DNA from: Klebsiella phage K64-1
DNA: 64,000 nt
Sequence record: AB897757.1
Direction: 5' to 3' (one strand)
Shown here piece by piece: positions 173-56,805 of this stretch. A model generated the notes under the pieces. It saw only the letters and a program-made list of their open reading frames with translations, was not told the DNA's origin and made no database searches. How positions within the stretch are numbered: the stretch's first letter is position 1; each line of letters begins with the position of its first letter. Made by a program: the position numbers and the translations under genes.

Positions 173-661
173 TTATGCAGCAGATTCGACGATTTTAGCC
201 ATTTTATCTGCACGAGATGTAGTTTGACGATACCACAGTGAATCACGCATCTGACGTCCTGCTTCTTTATAATCAGCACGACCTAAAGCAGCAAGTGCTT
301 TTTTGAAGTTAAGCACTTTTGATTTACCCATTTGAAATACCATTAGCCATAGAACACGCTGTACGCTCTCTGGAGCAGTCATACCGAATTGTTGATAGAT
401 TGCCTTAGCATCATTGTATGCTTGCTTAGCGTCCTTCAGGAGCAGTGCATCAGCCTCTTTTTCAGTTAGTCCGTTTTTAAAGTTCTCGTCTTTTAAAACC
501 AGATGACCATAACCAATAGTATCTAGACCTAAACTGTCTTTGTATACCCAGAATTTGTTATTTTTAAAATAACCAAGTTTAGACTGATACGCGATAGTAC
601 CTTCAAACTCTTTGACTTCAGTAAAAAACTGTTTATCATCACTAGAAATAGACCAGCCCAT
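173..661 (-). CDS. e: T4-type lysozyme (GH24) endolysin
   Basis: 162 aa. VYKDSLGLDTIGYGHLV and MVFQMG motifs align with T4 lysozyme IYKDTEGYYTIGIGHLL and MVFQMG. Similar length. Confidence 0.85.
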   Translation of the reverse strand: MGWSISSDDKQFFTEVKEFEGTIAYQSKLGYFKNNKFWVYKDSLGLDTIGYGHLVLKDENFKNGLTEKEADALLLKDAKQAYNDAKAIYQQFGMTAPESVQRVLWLMVFQMGKSKVLNFKKALAALGRADYKEAGRQMRDSLWYRQTTSRADKMAKIVESAA

Positions 662-697
662 ATTTTTACCTCTTTTACTTAAATTTACTTGACTTTG

Positions 698-705
698 TAT
701 TTATA
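698..705 (-). promoter_or_regulatory. T4-type late promoter TATAAATA upstream of lysozyme gene
   Basis: Reverse complement reads TATAAATA about 37 nt upstream of ATG at 661. RBS gaggt precedes the start. Confidence 0.4.
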
Positions 706-771
706 TTAGAGTACATTTGTGTAGTAAAAATATTTGAATACTAAAAGTTGTTAATTATTTAAGGTGTTTAA

Positions 772-1194
772 ATGAGATATGATGTTATAAATGATGTTAG
801 ATCTGTTTCTGTGGTTAATAAAAAGTACTTCTATAAACCAAAAGGTAAAAACAATAAGAAGTATGAAACCATGATTGATGAATACGGAACAGAAGTGATT
901 TGTAGTGATGTACCACTTGATTTACCAGAATTATCATATGAATACAATTCTTCAATTGAATACAATGGTGTTGAATTTATTTATAGAACGTATATTCGTG
1001 ATAATTATGAAATAGAAGATGATGTAATATACAGACGTATGACAGATTACACTGAAATGGATGAAGATGAGCTATTCCAGTACTCATTGGTATTCGAGAA
1101 TGATAATTTTTCATTTCATGATGCAGTTAAAATACAAAAATGGTTAATTATGAGATATCGTGTTGTTAATACCACGATTAATGTGGATTTATAA
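772..1194 (+). CDS. hypothetical protein
   Basis: 140-aa ORF transcribed divergently from the lysozyme gene. No recognisable motif. Confidence 0.5.
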   Translation: MRYDVINDVRSVSVVNKKYFYKPKGKNNKKYETMIDEYGTEVICSDVPLDLPELSYEYNSSIEYNGVEFIYRTYIRDNYEIEDDVIYRRMTDYTEMDEDELFQYSLVFENDNFSFHDAVKIQKWLIMRYRVVNTTINVDL

Positions 1195-1205
1195 GAGAGA
1201 TTATA

Positions 1206-1664
1206 ATGCCTGGAAAACCAGAGAAAATTTATGACAATACAGAATTAACCATTATACTGAAAAATGTAAACAATTACAAGAATCTAAGTCCAGAAGCAAG
1301 GGAGATATTCAAAGAAACGAATATCAAGTACAAACCGAGCGGTGCTGAAAGACCCTATGATATGGATCATATTTACTATATGATTAGAGTTCTAACTGAG
1401 GTGTCACTTGATTCAGTACGAAAGAGTTTAATTCTAAGGACAGGTGTCGTATTATCTAACAAGTCAATACAAAGATATAAGCGTGTTGTAATAGAAGTAT
1501 CAAAAGCATTGTTATGTACACACAGAAATGGTATTGCTTTGCATATCAAAAAAGAAGAAGGAAAACACTATTTGACAGATCAACAAAGTTCCAGATTGAA
1601 CACTTTAAGGAAAAAGGGTGTCCCTATTGAGGACATGATAAATTACCTACAGAAACTGCTCTAG
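1206..1664 (+). CDS. hypothetical protein
   Basis: 152-aa ORF. Spacing of 11 nt after the previous ORF suggests an operon. No recognisable motif. Confidence 0.5.
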   Translation: MPGKPEKIYDNTELTIILKNVNNYKNLSPEAREIFKETNIKYKPSGAERPYDMDHIYYMIRVLTEVSLDSVRKSLILRTGVVLSNKSIQRYKRVVIEVSKALLCTHRNGIALHIKKEEGKHYLTDQQSSRLNTLRKKGVPIEDMINYLQKLL

Positions 1665-1783
1665 CCCAGTATTCATGCGGGTTGTAGGAATTAGGGACAC
1701 CTTTTTGTGTGTTTTTTTGATGCAGTGTCCCTAATTCAGACCAAGAACCCAGTATTCATGCGGGTTGTAGGAATTAGGGACAC
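1665..1783. repeat. two perfect 36-nt direct repeats (1665-1700, 1748-1783) plus an inverted copy of the repeat 3' end (1725-1737), forming a 13-bp stem with a 24-nt loop
   Basis: cccagtattcatgcgggttgtaggaattagggacac occurs twice, 83 nt apart. gtgtccctaattc is the reverse complement of gaattagggacac. The element starts immediately after the stop of the 1206..1664 ORF. Confidence 0.85.
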
Positions 1784-2079
1784 TCTATTATTAAATTCAT
1801 ACTTTTTCCTGTCCTTAATTCAATAGGTCGCTACGCTCAAATATTGATCTTCGTCACTCCGTTCCTCGATCAATATTAAAATCGGCAATTTGCGTTTTGT
1901 TCTCGATTCGCAAGCGAACCAATCACAAACCCGCAGCGAATTGCGAATCTCCCTTCGGTCAGTCAGTAATACTGCTTTTGGGAGAAAGCAACTCTCGGAG
2001 TGATGAAAAACGAATTCCATTCGGCTCATGAAAAACCAACGAATAGTCGGTTCTGTTGAATTACTTGAATTATAATTGT

Positions 2080-2162
2080 CTGTATTCACTTCTAAGGAGT
2101 TTTATACACTTCCTTAGTGGTTCTATGTCTTAAACAAGAAAACACATCAGAATGCGATACAG
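2080..2162. repeat. 83-nt repeat copy 1 with internal stem-loop (ctaagga...tccttag)
   Basis: About 90 percent identical to 2304..2386. Contains taaggag and the complementary cttccttag flanking a ttttataca loop. Confidence 0.8.
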
Positions 2163-2303
2163 GAATTCTCGTAGCTATTATCAAAGCAGTTACTATCCAT
2201 TGTAATATCTGCTCCATTAAAAGGACGCCCAATTCAGTACTGAAAAACTTTTGTGAGTAAGTCATTTCAAACTGATTAATTTAAGGACACCCATTTAAAT
2301 TAA

Positions 2304-2386
2304 CTGTATCCACTTCTAAGAAGTTTTATACAATTCCTTAGTGGTTTTATGTCTTAAACAAGAAAACGCCTCAAAATGCGATACAG
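2304..2386. repeat. 83-nt repeat copy 2
   Basis: Aligns to 2080..2162 with about 7 mismatches. Same internal inverted repeat. Confidence 0.8.
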
Positions 2387-2417
2387 AGCGTTTTATGTGG
2401 TGTTACAGAAATAACAA

Positions 2418-2445
2418 AAGGAGCACAAGGCTCCCTTTGTTATTA
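2418..2445 (-). terminator. rho-independent terminator downstream of gp5-like gene
   Basis: ggagc-acaag-gctcc hairpin. On the minus strand it is followed by a U-run (ttttgttatttct). Confidence 0.5.
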
Positions 2446-5106
2446 TTACTGACATGCCTCAAGACGACGTGCCATAAACTCAGCACGTCTTGTTGTTTGA
2501 CCATACCATGCAGAGTTGCGAATGTGTGCTGCTGCCAGGCGATAGTTTCCCTGTGCCATAGCACCAAGCATACCCGTAAATTGTTGTACGCCCCCTTTAC
2601 CCATCTGGAATACCATCTCGACTAGTACAAGTTGAGCCATATATGGTGTTTTCATCTTATAAGATGCATAGATAGAACTTGCATCGTTGATTGCCTTTGT
2701 ACTATCACGAACCAACATTGCATCAGCTTGTTCTTCAGTAATACCTGAACTGAAGTTTTCACCACGTAATACTAGGTGTCCATAACCAATAGTTGGGAAT
2801 CCTCTACTATCAGTATAAGTCCAGAATTTATCATTTCTAAAGTACCCTTTTGCTTGTTGATATTGTTTAGTACCTTCAAACTCTTTGAGTTCTGGCATTA
2901 ATGTAGAATCACCTGGTTTGATTTGCCAATCCACCGCAGTTTTATCTACTGTACCAATATTCATTTCTTGTGGGGAGTAATTAACCACTGTACTGCTTTT
3001 TGATGTTCTTGGTCGTCTAACCGGAACATGACGAGACCCACGTTGTGCATAACCAGAACCAATTGTTTGTATCTTGGTACTAACAACCAGTTCATTACTA
3101 TCATTACCAGACACCACTACTGTGTTAGATGATGTTTCTTTAGTAGCTTTACCTTGTATTAGTGTTTTATTTGCACATTCTGAACCCGTACCAGTTTGGG
3201 TAGCATAGAATAGACCAGGATCTACCGTACCACTAAAACCATATAAATTGGCTGAATCGACGCGAATTTCAAATTTCAAAATACCACTTGCAGTACCAAT
3301 TTCTTGTCCTTTTTGTACTACATCTTTACTATACAATGAAGTTTTCAAACCATAAAATACTGATTTATACCCAGAATTATGTACAATATACACTGCATTA
3401 TTATATATACCAACTGTACCGGCATCAGGTGCAACTACAGTAGAATTACATTGTATTTCCCAGCCATTATGATCTGTTGTACTTCCTTTATTATCAGTTA
3501 TATTTTTACCCCAATACCCGTACTGACGAATAATACCATTACATGGCATTAACATGTGAAGACCTTCATATGTTTGGGAATAACCATTCATACCAGTGTC
3601 AGTCATTAAATCTTGTGTCTGCACTTGAGATGTTTCTGGGGCGTATGAGATGAACTGTACGGCCTCCTGTTGTTGAGCCTGTACCACCTGTGGCTGGACG
3701 TCATTAGCAGGTTGTGGATGTACTGGTGCCGTAGTTGAACCACTCCCTGAACCATTGTAACCTGTATCTACGGTACTACCATGATTTGATGCATCCTGCC
3801 AGTTTGAAATATTATGAATATGTTCATTAAGTCCAGCATTTGGTGTTTTAAAGTCCGGTGCCATGAATTCAGCAGTACCCTTATTACCTGAAGCATCAAC
3901 TGTAAGATTCTGTCCACCACCACTGATATTAGTGGATGAATCACCGATGATGTTAGCAGTTGAACCTTTCATGGAAACATTACTACCCGCAGTCACATCA
4001 GTACTACTACCGCTTTGTAAACGTAAAGAAGCAGCCGTCACCAATCGTAAATCTGCACCACTATTGATAACTACTTGTCCTTCTATTTTAGAATCCAATG
4101 AACCAAGTAATTCAAGTTTAGTATTACCACTAATACGAGCATTAAGATCCTGTCCAGTTTCTATATTACATGATCTACCAGCAACCATATTAATATCCTG
4201 ACCAGCACGAATGTTAATATTTTTATCGCAGTGAATATTAATATCTCCATCACCGGTAAATGATATACGAGCAGTACCATCACGATTGATTAATAAAATA
4301 TCACCAGTTGCCTCAGATAACATCAACTGAGCACCACTACGAGTACGCAAAACAATACCTTCATTGGTTCTTGCTCCCACCCTGGTATCATTCACTGGGT
4401 TATTGAATTGTGTATCCTGATAAGTATCTGGATCATCATCCCATGAAGGAACATTAAGTTCATCATCGGTATATCCATCATCTAGTACAAAACTATTACC
4501 CCTTGGTGTACTCATACCATATACTGTACTAATCATTTGTCTGGTACTACTTCTGTTAGCTACACCAGCTTCTTTGTCGTATAAAAGGTTTTGTTTTTTT
4601 AAACCTTCAACGATAGGAACATTGACATATTTTTCATTTTGATCAGTACTGATGGTATTTCTGTCATAATCGGTAACTGGTAATGGAGAATCTGTACCAC
4701 TATATTGTGATGTAGTGGAAGTTGCCATACCTGGAACCATTGTGTTCATTCGTTGTTCGTATATACAACCAATCCAGTAAGCTTCATGTGATCTACCCTG
4801 AATGAATATAACAATTACTGGACAGCCTACATCGGGAGGTACCGCCCAGAATCCATAACCTTTTGGATACTGACCGTATGCATCAGCACTCGGTACACCT
4901 GGGGTTTTACCTGCAAATGGAGACATATAAGAACATTCAATCCATGATTTCTTATCGTCTCGTTCACTTTGTGAACCCTGAACCCATACTTTAATTTTAC
5001 CACTCATAGTAGGATCTCGGTTGTCCATAACAATCGCTACCTGTGGATAAGCTGGGTCAAAACGACCCAACTGTTCTTTTGCATACTGTTTACTTGTATC
5101 TACCAT
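2446..5106 (-). CDS. 5: baseplate central spike / tail lysozyme, gp5-like: N-terminal gp5/VgrG OB domain, beta-helix region, degenerate M23 (LytM-like) domain, C-terminal T4-lysozyme (GH24) domain
   Basis: N-terminus VWVQGSQ...ECSYMSPFAG...GFWAVPPDVGCPVIVIFIQG is gp5-like. The middle has repetitive beta-helix-like segments. DHNGWEI...VVAPDAGTV...YIVHNSGY...GQEIGTASG follows the M23 pattern but lacks HxH. The C-terminus PELKEFEGTKQYQQAKGYF...TIGYGHLV...MVFQMG is a lysozyme fold. Confidence 0.8.
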   Translation of the reverse strand: MVDTSKQYAKEQLGRFDPAYPQVAIVMDNRDPTMSGKIKVWVQGSQSERDDKKSWIECSYMSPFAGKTPGVPSADAYGQYPKGYGFWAVPPDVGCPVIVIFIQGRSHEAYWIGCIYEQRMNTMVPGMATSTTSQYSGTDSPLPVTDYDRNTISTDQNEKYVNVPIVEGLKKQNLLYDKEAGVANRSSTRQMISTVYGMSTPRGNSFVLDDGYTDDELNVPSWDDDPDTYQDTQFNNPVNDTRVGARTNEGIVLRTRSGAQLMLSEATGDILLINRDGTARISFTGDGDINIHCDKNINIRAGQDINMVAGRSCNIETGQDLNARISGNTKLELLGSLDSKIEGQVVINSGADLRLVTAASLRLQSGSSTDVTAGSNVSMKGSTANIIGDSSTNISGGGQNLTVDASGNKGTAEFMAPDFKTPNAGLNEHIHNISNWQDASNHGSTVDTGYNGSGSGSTTAPVHPQPANDVQPQVVQAQQQEAVQFISYAPETSQVQTQDLMTDTGMNGYSQTYEGLHMLMPCNGIIRQYGYWGKNITDNKGSTTDHNGWEIQCNSTVVAPDAGTVGIYNNAVYIVHNSGYKSVFYGLKTSLYSKDVVQKGQEIGTASGILKFEIRVDSANLYGFSGTVDPGLFYATQTGTGSECANKTLIQGKATKETSSNTVVVSGNDSNELVVSTKIQTIGSGYAQRGSRHVPVRRPRTSKSSTVVNYSPQEMNIGTVDKTAVDWQIKPGDSTLMPELKEFEGTKQYQQAKGYFRNDKFWTYTDSRGFPTIGYGHLVLRGENFSSGITEEQADAMLVRDSTKAINDASSIYASYKMKTPYMAQLVLVEMVFQMGKGGVQQFTGMLGAMAQGNYRLAAAHIRNSAWYGQTTRRAEFMARRLEACQ

Positions 5107-8518: not shown

Positions 8519-8556
8519 TTTTATTTCTCCATTAGGACATTTATAATATTTATATT

Positions 8557-26114: not shown

Positions 26115-26122
26115 TATAAATA
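26115..26122 (+). promoter_or_regulatory. T4-type late promoter TATAAATA upstream of tail-fibre-like gene
   Basis: gttataaataatt lies 32 nt upstream of ATG at 26154. Confidence 0.4.
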
Positions 26123-56095: not shown

Positions 56096-56680
56096 TGATT
56101 TTTGACAAGTCCAAATTTGAAAAATTTACTAAACCACGTAAACTGAAATATATTCAGGAAAATGATTTTTTGGGATTTAATACAAAAAATGCAGTGATGG
56201 TATTATATTGTATAGAAAATGATTTAACAGATGTTGTATATGCACCTTGTGGATCTGAATGTAAAAATAACATCAACTAAACCATCCAAGTACTGTAATA
56301 GTTATAAAAACAGAAAGGAAGAAACATGTCCTCTGTGTCATAATTATTATAAAAATACAATGCAAGAGAAGTACAAAGAAAGTTGTACCAAAAAAATATG
56401 GTGTAGAAAATCCAATGAAAAGTACTGAAATTAGAGAAAACTATAAACAGAATTTCATTGAAAAAACAGGATATACAAATCCATTGTGCACAGGTACCGA
56501 TTCAAGAACAAAAAGAGATCAAACTTGTATTGTATTATTTGGTTCGGTATCTTCACAAAAACGACCCATCACTTTTGCCTAATTTAACAGAAGATGATAT
56601 AACTATCGGTTTGTATAAGTTCAATAAAATATACACTACTGGGAATTTGAAATATGAAAAAAACTATAAATGAAAATGCC
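56092..56680 (+). pseudogene. decayed copy of the N-terminal DNA-binding region of the 59097..60830 endonuclease
   Basis: Fragments in three frames (KNAVMVLY...YAPCGSECK, TCPLCHNYYKNTMQEKYKESCTKK, KKYGVENPMKSTEIRENYKQNFIEKTGYTNPLCTG) align in order with KNAVLRVY...YAVCGRKCK, YCEKCNKHWREKK and RKYGTNYNK...KTGYSCPLSNP of the intact gene. Confidence 0.6.
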
Positions 56681-56805
56681 AGTTCTGGAAGTACATCATC
56701 TGGATCTATTGCTTCCAGTACCAACGGATTACATTATCCGCTAGTCACCAGACTTCCCAAGACTAATTTCTTTGGAATGAAAGAATATAAAAAGAAGGAT
56801 AAAAA

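Follow-up and report, generated by a model that had tools for sequence, protein, structure and literature searches.

A repeat-rich 780-nt non-coding stretch beside gp5 of Klebsiella phage K64-1, best read as the partner of the small protein ORF075

The genome of Klebsiella phage K64-1 (AB897757.1) contains a 780-nucleotide (nt) stretch without a convincing open reading frame (ORF), situated between ORF075 and the stop codon of gp5, the hub/lysozyme gene (positions 1665–2445 of the 64,000-nt piece of DNA analysed here, called the window). Sequence comparison suggests that it is best read as one half, cis-acting and non-coding, of a module completed by ORF075, and that in integrating elements of uncultured bacteria this two-part module usually follows closely on the gene for the large serine recombinase. 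The strongest facts in favour are the constant pairing of protein gene and non-coding stretch, a locus-specific motif in a fixed arrangement, a −10-like box at the last motif site, and a homologous core with a covarying hairpin. ORF075 may bind the motif and so control a promoter for a structured non-coding transcript or leader, a mechanism that we hold to be quite possible, if not yet probable. A preliminary description made from the sequence alone had already recognised the locus as non-coding and rich in repeats and hairpins; it is indeed so, beyond what chance would give, and it is conserved outside this genome. The tie between motif and ORF075, the status of the locus as an insertion, and the distant homologues were not part of that description.

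By BLAST, the window belongs to the RaK2-like Klebsiella jumbo phages (Alcyoneusvirus), with 98–99% identity to RaK2 (65.5–66.6 kb) and seven other records. Word-based searches with ORF075 (152 amino acids, aa) returned near-identical proteins only. A full HMMER scan, however, detected 15 remote full-length relatives of 26–37% identity, which were confirmed by tblastn with expect values (E) of 1e-10 to 3e-23. They form an unnamed family of helical proteins of 150–186 aa that gave no match to Pfam, to PHROGs of assigned function, to PADLOC or to PDB sequences, and no relatives were returned from IMG/VR by either the family alignment or single members. An AlphaFold2 model of ORF075 based on a 16-sequence alignment is all-helical with a predicted local distance difference test (pLDDT) score of 91.8; folding from the single sequence gave a pLDDT of 39 and was not usable. 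Foldseek against PDB and a PDB sequence profile produced no significant match, and the model's only structural neighbours, all weak, are DNA-binding modules of the SANT/SLIDE/homeodomain type.

The context of the family was assessed in 12 homologous loci drawn from metagenome assemblies and one metagenome-assembled genome (MAG). An ORF-free stretch adjoins the family gene in all 12, with 460–920 nt lying downstream in 11 of them; the exception, L033, has 1.1 kb of ORF-free DNA upstream of the gene and 183 nt downstream. A large serine recombinase gene is found upstream in nine loci. Read from the recombinase onward, a typical locus has one to three small ORFs, with an HNH_3 endonuclease often among them, then the relative of ORF075, the ORF-free stretch and finally cargo. 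The cargo is varied (EAL, Hcp/DUF1493, GTPase, more HNH genes), and L046 carries a CI/Cro-like pair. Among individual loci, L034, L038, L041/L042, L044 and L032 were seen to specify Hcp and DUF1493, EAL-domain proteins, a dynamin/AIG1-like GTPase and extra HNH endonucleases. In L034, L038 and L042 the recombinase is flanked by host genes (prkA, eamA/nlpC, miaB-like), which marks these as integrated elements, and L033 is phage-like, with a terminase and a PF00940 RNA_pol ORF.

Each locus has its own motif of 9–12 nt, present in direct and inverted copies, in an array that begins at the stop codon or within the last codons of the family gene; the recurrent order of copies is plus, inverted (one or more), plus. 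When up to 8.5 kb of each locus and all 64 kb of the window were scanned, 42 of 50 copies (≤1 mismatch) lay either within the ORF-free stretch or in the gene's final 120 nt. The forms across loci are TTAGGG(A/C/T)(C/A)AC, CATTATGAGAAC, ATTCTGGTAAC, ATTAGCGTAAC and AACGAGAAC, distributed as follows.

Window: AATTAGGGACAC
L028: AATTAGGGCAAC
L032, L041 and L047: AATTAGGGTAAC
L034, L033 and L038: CATT(A/G)TGAGAAC
L037: ATTCTGGTAAC
L043: ATTAGCGTAAC
L040: AACGAGAAC

In most loci the last plus-strand copy leads into TATATT, TATTAT or TATAAT, usually within about 2 nt, at 33–91 nt ahead of a conserved hairpin (H1, described below). Of the 12 homologous loci, 10 combine the last copy with TATA(A/T)T; the box of L041 (TAATAG) is a looser one, and that of L044 is unclear. 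A −10 hexamer adjoining a repeated site, at a position conserved across homologues, corresponds to an operator-type arrangement. A different short sequence was also seen in these stretches: (C)AGTACTG is present in 1–9 copies in the non-coding stretches beside ORF075-family genes of the metagenomic loci, and the hexamer AGTACT occurs 126 times in the 64 kb of the window where about 22 are expected from base composition (e.g., 2236, 12648/12658, 14360/14370).

In the window, the array occupies the end of ORF075 and the left part of the gap.

1618–1627, minus strand: inverted motif copy (reading GTGTCCCTAT on the plus strand), inside the 3' end of ORF075
1665–1700, plus strand: 36-nt repeat copy 1, with a small hairpin at 1663–1683 and the motif AATTAGGGACAC at 1689–1700
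1725–1736, minus strand: inverted motif copy, the 3' arm of a perfect 13-bp hairpin with 1688–1700 (z −4.2)
1748–1783, plus strand: 36-nt repeat copy 2, with the motif at 1772–1783
1765–1770, plus strand: −35-like TTGTAG, with a 15-nt spacer to TATTAT
1786–1791, plus strand: −10-like TATTAT, 2 nt past the motif copy at 1772–1783
1810–1821, minus strand: degenerate inverted motif TGTCCTTAATTC, pairing with 1771–1782 with one G.U on the plus strand

The two 36-nt direct repeats, and the inverted copy between them that gives a 13-bp stem, are perfect, just as first described; no third copy exists in the 64 kb, and none of 100 shuffles yielded any such repeat. Each forms the conserved head of an 83/84-nt unit repeated in tandem. 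The head is followed by a loop of 24–26 nt, unrelated between the units, and then by a conserved arm that pairs back to the head's last 12–13 bases, forming a hairpin of 13 bp in unit 1 (1688–1700/1725–1737) and 12 bp in unit 2 (1771–1782/1810–1821). The change G1777A in phage KP13-7 turns the pairing of TGTCCTTAATTC with 1771–1782 perfect. The recurrence of an (A/G)GGACAC-type motif also held up on counting: TTAGGGACAC (≤1 mismatch) has six copies in the window compared with 2.6 expected, a number reached by 2 of 100 shuffles, and five of the six lie between 1618 and 2290. The region of the inverted copy at the end of ORF075 pairs 1612–1626 with 1692–1706 (15 bp), and the T-run GTGTGTTTTTTTG that follows 36-nt copy 1 extends to 1719, so that this is a likely terminator of the ORF074-075 transcript. 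On the minus strand, a hairpin at 1635–1619 followed by a T-run is also terminator-like; such signals flank the locus on both strands. A generic promoter scan did not list the 1765–1791 site. An eight-codon mini-ORF (MNLIIECP, 1801–1775, minus strand) with a good AGGA-N6-ATG ribosome site was noticed by eye in the loop and arm of the second hairpin.

Downstream of the array lies a conserved core, homologous to the stretches that adjoin the metagenomic ORF075-family genes.

1820–1975, plus strand: conserved non-coding core
1828–1839, plus strand: block A, TCGCTACGCTCA, within the core
1840–1849/1868–1877: hairpin H1, perfect 10-bp stem, loop TTCGTCACTCCGTTCCTC
1879–1885, plus strand: AAATCGG, within the core
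1886–1948, plus strand: variable hairpin region, within the core
1948–1974, plus strand: block C, TCTCCCTTCGGTCAGTCAGTAATACTG, within the core
2003–2014 and 2028–2039, plus strand: two copies of ATGAAAAAC(G/C)AA

Homology between the cores of the window and L043 was detected by nhmmer (E 8e-7 and 1.6e-6), and a chain of pairwise nhmmer matches joins all 13 stretches on the strand of the gene, many other pairs giving E of 1e-10 to 1e-50; no core match was found in seven control loci. By eye, the two ATGAAAAAC(G/C)AA copies look like the sequence that leads into block A in L037, L041 and L043 (ATGAAAACAAAT...TCGCT). H1 is kept in 11 loci in the form of three unrelated stems (…TTGATC/GATCAA…, …AGATCAAA/TTTGATCT… and …AGAGCCTAA/TTAGTCTCT…), while its loop is conserved as TTCG(T/C)…CTC. 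Cognate arms form 8.3 of 9 pairs compared with 3.25 of 9 for arms taken from different stem classes, and at least three pair types were observed at each of the nine positions. The three hairpins named in the preliminary description are all present (1840–1849/1868–1877, 1905–1913/1940–1948 and 1948–1953/1980–1985). Because H1 recurs in 11 loci with covarying stems and a constant loop, the first of them, with its 10-bp stem, is one instance of this conserved hairpin. A look-alike of a middle-class promoter on the minus strand (1903–1875), the start of which would fall inside H1, was set aside, as about 0.17 are expected by chance and the match is not significant.

The mechanism envisaged starts from ORF075 as a putative small helical DNA-binding protein recognising AATTAGGGACAC. 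Its predicted sites begin inside the 3' end of its own gene and continue downstream in direct and inverted orientation (1618–1627, 1689–1700, 1725–1736, 1772–1783 and 1810–1821, with degenerate sites at 2059–2070 and 2278–2290). The first pair of sites with its T-run (1612–1626/1692–1706, T-run to 1719) would terminate the ORF074-075 message. The last strong site adjoins the −10-like box at 1786–1791, and its occupancy would therefore control a rightward promoter. From this promoter a conserved, hairpin-rich non-coding transcript would be made (core 1820–1975), for which the conserved loop of H1 is the likeliest recognition element. After the core come two 94-nt units, each headed by motif and TATA, and transcripts would end at the hairpin 2363–2394 or the terminator 2410–2444, no gene following in the phage.

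Several points weigh against this mechanism. Promoter and non-coding RNA are both putative, and DNA binding by ORF075 would follow only from its adjacency to the sites and from the difference in motif between loci. The type of motif does not strictly follow the protein tree, since the distant P0010 and P0016 carry AATTAGGGTAAC too. The −35 box is weak or absent in most loci, and the spacer in the window is only 15 nt. In most metagenomic loci genes follow the stretch, so that a long leader is possible in place of a free-standing RNA, and in phage Muenster 224 nt including one 94-nt unit are dispensable. Covariation was found for one helix only, H1. RNAalifold recovered no helix from a four-sequence MAFFT alignment, in which the arms were placed out of register, and the case for covariation is accordingly our own arm-by-arm count; a MAFFT alignment of trimmed hairpins was likewise out of register and not usable. 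The minus strand folds better in 12 of 13 cores (mean −61 versus −50 kcal/mol), and the three A.C mismatches of H1 become G.U pairs on the minus strand, which a leftward transcript or a hairpin acting at the DNA level would fit equally well. The cues to the strand of the RNA thus disagree: the promoter-like boxes point to the plus strand, folding energy and wobble pairs to the minus strand.

The main rival explanation, although we consider it unlikely, is a replication origin that comes with a site-specific initiator or accessory protein of its own. The motif copies would then be iterons bound by ORF075, unwinding would take place in the AT-rich DNA that follows the last of them, and H1 (with two GATC sites) and block C would serve priming or loading; integrating elements would use the origin to replicate after excision, and the jumbo phage would have gained it as an additional one. 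This would account for the short direct and inverted repeats that adjoin and overlap the end of the small gene, a constant feature of the ORF075 family, and for the AT-rich tract of 30–70 nt that follows the last copy in every locus, array and tract occurring together in 13 of 13 loci. L037 has four phased GGACGTTTTT repeats. The covarying stems and fixed loop of H1 are what is expected of a hairpin read as single-stranded nucleic acid, and the folding shows no clear strand preference. Satellites and islands place their replication (rep-ori) modules after the recombinase gene, and the position of the present module is analogous. Against an origin, ORF075 (17 kDa, all helical) has no winged-helix, helicase or primase match that would make it a recognisable initiator, and it is much smaller than the iteron-binding initiators known, which are of about 230 aa or more. 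Neither a helicase nor a primase gene lies beside the family gene in any locus, the sister genera replicate without the locus, and some 300 nt of conserved hairpin-rich sequence exceeds the typical needs of a theta origin. The analogy to oriE of T4, which had been drawn from the neighbourhood of gene 5, also fails: oriE lies inside gene 5 on the antisense strand, and the locus is missing at gp5 in the closest other genera (PBECO4, Salmonella phage Munch and Cronobacter phage GAP32), so that its adjacency to gp5 is an accident of insertion.

The motif also invites comparison with the promoters of single-subunit RNA polymerases of the T7 type. Motif and TATA box together would be such promoters, and the copies without TATA would be decoys; metagenomic elements would use their own polymerase or that of a helper phage, and when K11-like Klebsiella podophages co-infect, the AATTAGGGACAC copy of RaK2 would respond to their polymerase or titrate it. 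The annotated phage promoters in the K11 record read AATTAGG(G/A)CACACTATAGGGAGA, and barring a 1-nt indel the window motif equals their upstream half. The 17-nt geometry is kept in L047 (AATTAGGGTAACATATA|GAAT) and L028 (AATTAGGGCAACATATA|TATT), the loci differ mainly in the block that determines promoter specificity in the T7 group, and the L033 contig carries the PF00940 RNA_pol ORF. The copies are nevertheless clustered beside the ORF075-family gene (42 of 50) and not spread ahead of other genes; many are inverted or without TATA, the distance from motif to TATA varies by 0–2 nt, and the initiating bases are A/T-rich, not G-rich. The window itself has TCTAT for CTATA and no GGG start, and no gene for a T7-like polymerase turned up in it, though none was specifically looked for. 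We rate T7-type promoters as very improbable.

A wider conjecture, which we rate as distinctly improbable, is that ORF075 and its partner form an undescribed mobile module of a protein and a structured RNA (or origin), crossing between integrating islands and lytic phages, and in Klebsiella perhaps keyed to K11-type podophage promoter-like sequences (AATTAGGG.CAC). If so, the module would act in competition between phages or between islands and phages; the RNA polymerase of a rival might, for example, activate it or be sequestered by it. The 46-nt hairpin shared with the unrelated Klebsiella Weberviruses, described below and amplified four-fold in one contig, would belong to the same interplay.

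That the gap is non-coding is supported by comparison of eight aligned Alcyoneusvirus genomes. It is by far the longest ORF-free interval at this end of the tightly packed genome, where typical gaps are 10–60 nt; another long one, of 710 nt without an ORF of ≥90 aa, was noted at 56096–56805. The small ORFs on either strand were ruled out: the frame of RaK2 ORF076w is broken by one or two additional A residues at 2005 in phiKp_21 and KP13-7, and ORF077w has lost single nucleotides at two places in phiKp_21 and half its length in Muenster. As these small ORFs are frameshifted or partly deleted in sister genomes, the gap is non-coding, and the absence of a convincing ORF, as first described, is upheld. 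By inspection, the differences between the 94-nt copies, or between them and the Webervirus sequence, show no codon-position bias. The whole gap folds far better than shuffled sequences on both strands (z −9.5 and −6.4).

The right part of the gap is dominated by two long repeats and ends in a terminator.

2059–2070, plus strand: motif-like AATTACTTGAAT, followed by TATAAT at 2071–2076
2069–2162, plus strand: 94-nt repeat copy 1, without the 3' arm of the terminal hairpin
2163–2292: spacer between the long repeats, absent from Muenster together with one repeat copy
2278–2290: degenerate motif AATTTAAGGACAC, just ahead of copy 2
2293–2386, plus strand: 94-nt repeat copy 2, with the terminal hairpin AAAACGCCTC/GAGCGTTTT at 2363–2394
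2410–2444: bidirectional intrinsic terminator hairpin with 15-bp arms and a 5-nt loop

The long repeats do lie 224 nt apart, but their length is 94 nt (2069–2162 and 2293–2386, 88% identical) and not the 83 nt first given. Each is headed by a degenerate motif and an AT box (AATTACTTGAAT-TATAAT at 2059–2076, AATTTAAGGACACCCATTTAAAT at 2278–2300). Neither unit folds better than shuffles (z −0.4 to −1.1 on the plus strand, and up to −2.4, for copy 1, on the minus strand). A pairing of Shine-Dalgarno-like and 16S-like sequences within them had been proposed; it is not a kept feature, as a G-to-A change in copy 2 and in Muenster is uncompensated and the units fold like shuffles. The terminator closes gp5 on the minus strand and any plus-strand transcript of the locus, and in Muenster its plus-strand T-run is longer.

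Positions 2351–2396 (46 nt) share about 85% identity with a non-coding element conserved in Klebsiella Weberviruses (BLAST E 1e-5, reciprocal 2e-4), with nothing else found among 50,697 phage records. The region of the 2363–2394 hairpin also resembles, by eye, the 3' ends of the L046 and L033 stretches. In the Weberviruses (L003 1400–1546, L004 and L017–L019) a non-coding element of about 130 nt directly follows the tail-tip gene, and comprises a hairpin GGCCTRAACGGC/GCCGTYAGGCC with a compensatory change and then the 46 nt shared with the window. One Webervirus contig from IMG/VR (L010 2020–2303) has a 69-nt unit in 4.1 perfect tandem copies.

Variation across the eight genomes bears on a further explanation, that the stretch in the jumbo phage is mostly a decaying passenger in which only the terminators matter, by insulating the convergent ORF075 and gp5 transcripts, the repeats having arisen by local duplication and recombination. 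The gap is more variable than its flanking genes (about 4.9% variable sites plus indels versus 0–3%), which favours this view, and its most variable part is copy 2 of the 94-nt repeat. Most variable sites of copy 2 switch to the base of copy 1, so that the copies undergo gene conversion. Muenster lacks exactly one 224-nt unit, with the crossover within the repeat near the AATGCGATACAG end; it is viable without spacer and one copy, so the 224 nt are dispensable. These events, and the lack of a significant fold in the 94-nt units, favour the passenger view. Conservation is good, however, in the core and in the first 171 nt; the latter (1665–1835), which hold the motif sites, are the least variable part of the gap, with three variable sites. 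Identity of 36/36 next to an unrelated loop and a kept arm is not what neutral decay of a duplication would leave, H1 has a perfect 10-bp stem in the window, and the core still matches relatives whose proteins are about 30% identical. A passenger origin is possible for the right-hand third and leaves the conserved left and centre unexplained; for the stretch as a whole it is improbable.

The setting of the locus is as follows.

173–661, minus strand: free-standing lysozyme gene, beyond ORF074 and ORF075
662–771: left insertion junction, a divergent promoter region
689–717, plus strand: sigma-70-like TTGACT-17-TACATT, ahead of ORF074
698–705, minus strand: T4-type late promoter TATAAATA, serving the displaced lysozyme gene
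772–1194, plus strand: ORF074, 140 aa, first gene of the inserted cassette
1206–1664, plus strand: ORF075, 152 aa, all-helical, left neighbour of the gap
1665–2445: ORF-free gap, bounded by ORF075 on the left and the gp5 stop on the right
2446–5106, minus strand: gp5 hub/lysozyme gene

The gap had been placed between the lysozyme gene and gp5. The right-hand neighbour is gp5 as stated, but the left-hand one is ORF075, with lysozyme beyond ORF074 and ORF075. In PBECO4 (Asteriusvirus), Munch and GAP32 the lysozyme gene directly follows gp5 on the same strand, after about 36 nt, and so positions 662–2445 (ORF074, ORF075 and the 780 nt) are a 1.8-kb Alcyoneusvirus-specific insertion between the two genes. 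Synteny and homology show that ORF074, ORF075 and the non-coding stretch entered the Alcyoneusvirus lineage as one insertion. ORF074 has no variable site across the eight genomes and gave weak PHROG matches only, all to families of unknown function. It weakly matches a 91-aa ORF of L034 (5754–5918; 33% over 55 aa, E 0.003 in a small database), which sits downstream of the non-coding stretch of that locus, and ORF074 may come from the same kind of element as L034-type loci. The free-standing lysozyme (173–661) and the C-terminal lysozyme domain of gp5 (2446–2950) are close paralogues; the likeness of their DNA gives a second BLAST place in every genome, and here the pair is split by the 1.8-kb insertion.

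The TATAAATA sequence precedes several further genes of the window: besides the lysozyme copy at 705 (minus), late promoters of this type were seen at 8554, 15499 and 52122 (minus) and at 26115 (plus). A second promoter class on the plus strand, TGAAC(A/G)AAAA-N13-(GA)TATAAT, lies ahead of many plus-strand genes (23704, 25305, 27949, 31809, 35410, 41645, 41725, 48251, 53118 and 61839) and is similar to the 'TGAAACG' promoter class reported in phages CBB and GAP32 (PMC5259590).

Several further searches were negative. ARAGORN found no transfer or transfer-messenger RNA gene in the window, and Rfam gave no match at the gathering threshold in the window and the 12 homologous loci; the best match of a permissive Rfam search of 1500–2600 was to an unrelated microRNA model (E about 0.9), nothing credible being returned. 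The stable RNAs suggested by analogy to tRNA, rnaC and rnaD of T4 thus found no support. The only plasmid matches in BLAST were of 35 nt, lay within a MobQ gene (E 0.06) and were put down to chance. Two pattern scans of GTDB genomes yielded no match in the first and about 120 chance or unrelated matches in the second, where the sole match inspected (L111, Aeromonas, the only one not from a MAG) was unrelated GC-rich coding DNA and the other approximately 119 were judged to be chance from the expected count. A looser pattern gave four chance matches in IMG/VR, and a pattern scan of JGI metagenomes gave none. A literature search found no paper that treats the locus.

An unexplained gap in a jumbo phage of Klebsiella that is a candidate for therapy can now be treated as a defined, testable unit: an unannotated protein family, the DNA sites that it probably uses, and a conserved non-coding element that Rfam does not contain. 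The module recurs by the serine recombinases of cargo-bearing islands, so that knowing its role, be it that of a switch, an origin or an RNA effector, would provide annotation for an entire class of elements, and it exemplifies the type of DNA that jumbo phages acquire from mobile elements. Two spurious ORF calls are corrected in RaK2-type records.

Among known systems, the operator-controlled promoters of phages and islands are similar in having short direct and inverted sites beside the gene of a small DNA-binding protein (putatively so for ORF075), one site adjoining a −10 box, and a site sequence that varies between relatives. They differ in that the ORF075 family has no helix-turn-helix, Pfam or PDB match, that its sites run from the 3' end of the gene downstream and not upstream, and that the regulated unit is apparently non-coding. 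Iteron origins (lambda O/ori, the rep-ori of Staphylococcus aureus pathogenicity islands and phage-inducible chromosomal islands, plasmid rep-iterons) share repeated sites that overlap or follow a gene, an AT-rich tract and a module placed after the integrase. ORF075, however, is half the size of known initiators with an unrelated fold, there are no replication genes nearby, and the conserved hairpin core of about 150–300 nt has no counterpart there. With T4 oriE and repEA-repEB only the gp5 neighbourhood is shared: in T4, oriE and both of its very small rep ORFs are contained in gene 5, antisense to it, whereas the present locus lies in a gap, is an insertion absent from sister genera, and has no sequence or architectural similarity to them. 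The promoter-and-stem-loop cassettes (PeSL) of T4-type phages likewise have a promoter-like box and stem-loops flanking ORFans in a plastic region, with repeats that recombine, as in the Muenster deletion and the gene conversion here. The proposal of such a dispersed cassette did not hold, as the 36-mer and the core of the 94-nt repeat were found only here in the 64 kb and BLAST of the repeats against each RaK2-like whole genome returned only the locus itself and the internal repeat; the copies are confined to one 0.8-kb locus, tied to one protein family, and occur also outside phages. The K11 promoters of the T7 group have AATTAGGG..AC..TATA in common with the motif, and the 17-nt geometry in some loci, but the copies at the loci are clustered, partly inverted or TATA-less, variable in spacing and without a G-rich start; the window does not fit the K11-type class, as it lacks TATA and a GGG start and its copies are clustered. 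ToxI and pseudo-ToxI arrays are alike in the 36-nt repeat length and in repeat copy numbers that change in related phages (the Webervirus contig with 4.1 perfect copies), but the 36-mers of the window are not tandem (83-nt period, unrelated spacers) and the adjacent ORF075 is all-helical and upstream. A type III (ToxIN-like) toxin–antitoxin system is not supported, there being no toxin-like ORF and PADLOC and Pfam being negative for ORF075. Nor is a CRISPR mini-array: two 36-nt repeats do flank a 47-nt spacer, but the repeat holds the ORF075-linked motif and the spacer its inverted copy, which speaks against such an array. Of the functions first proposed, a regulatory cassette or small-RNA locus and an origin are still live, while PeSL, tRNA-like and T4-oriE identities are not supported. 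The locus resembles an operator-promoter or rep-ori unit most, and neither its protein nor its core belongs to a described family.

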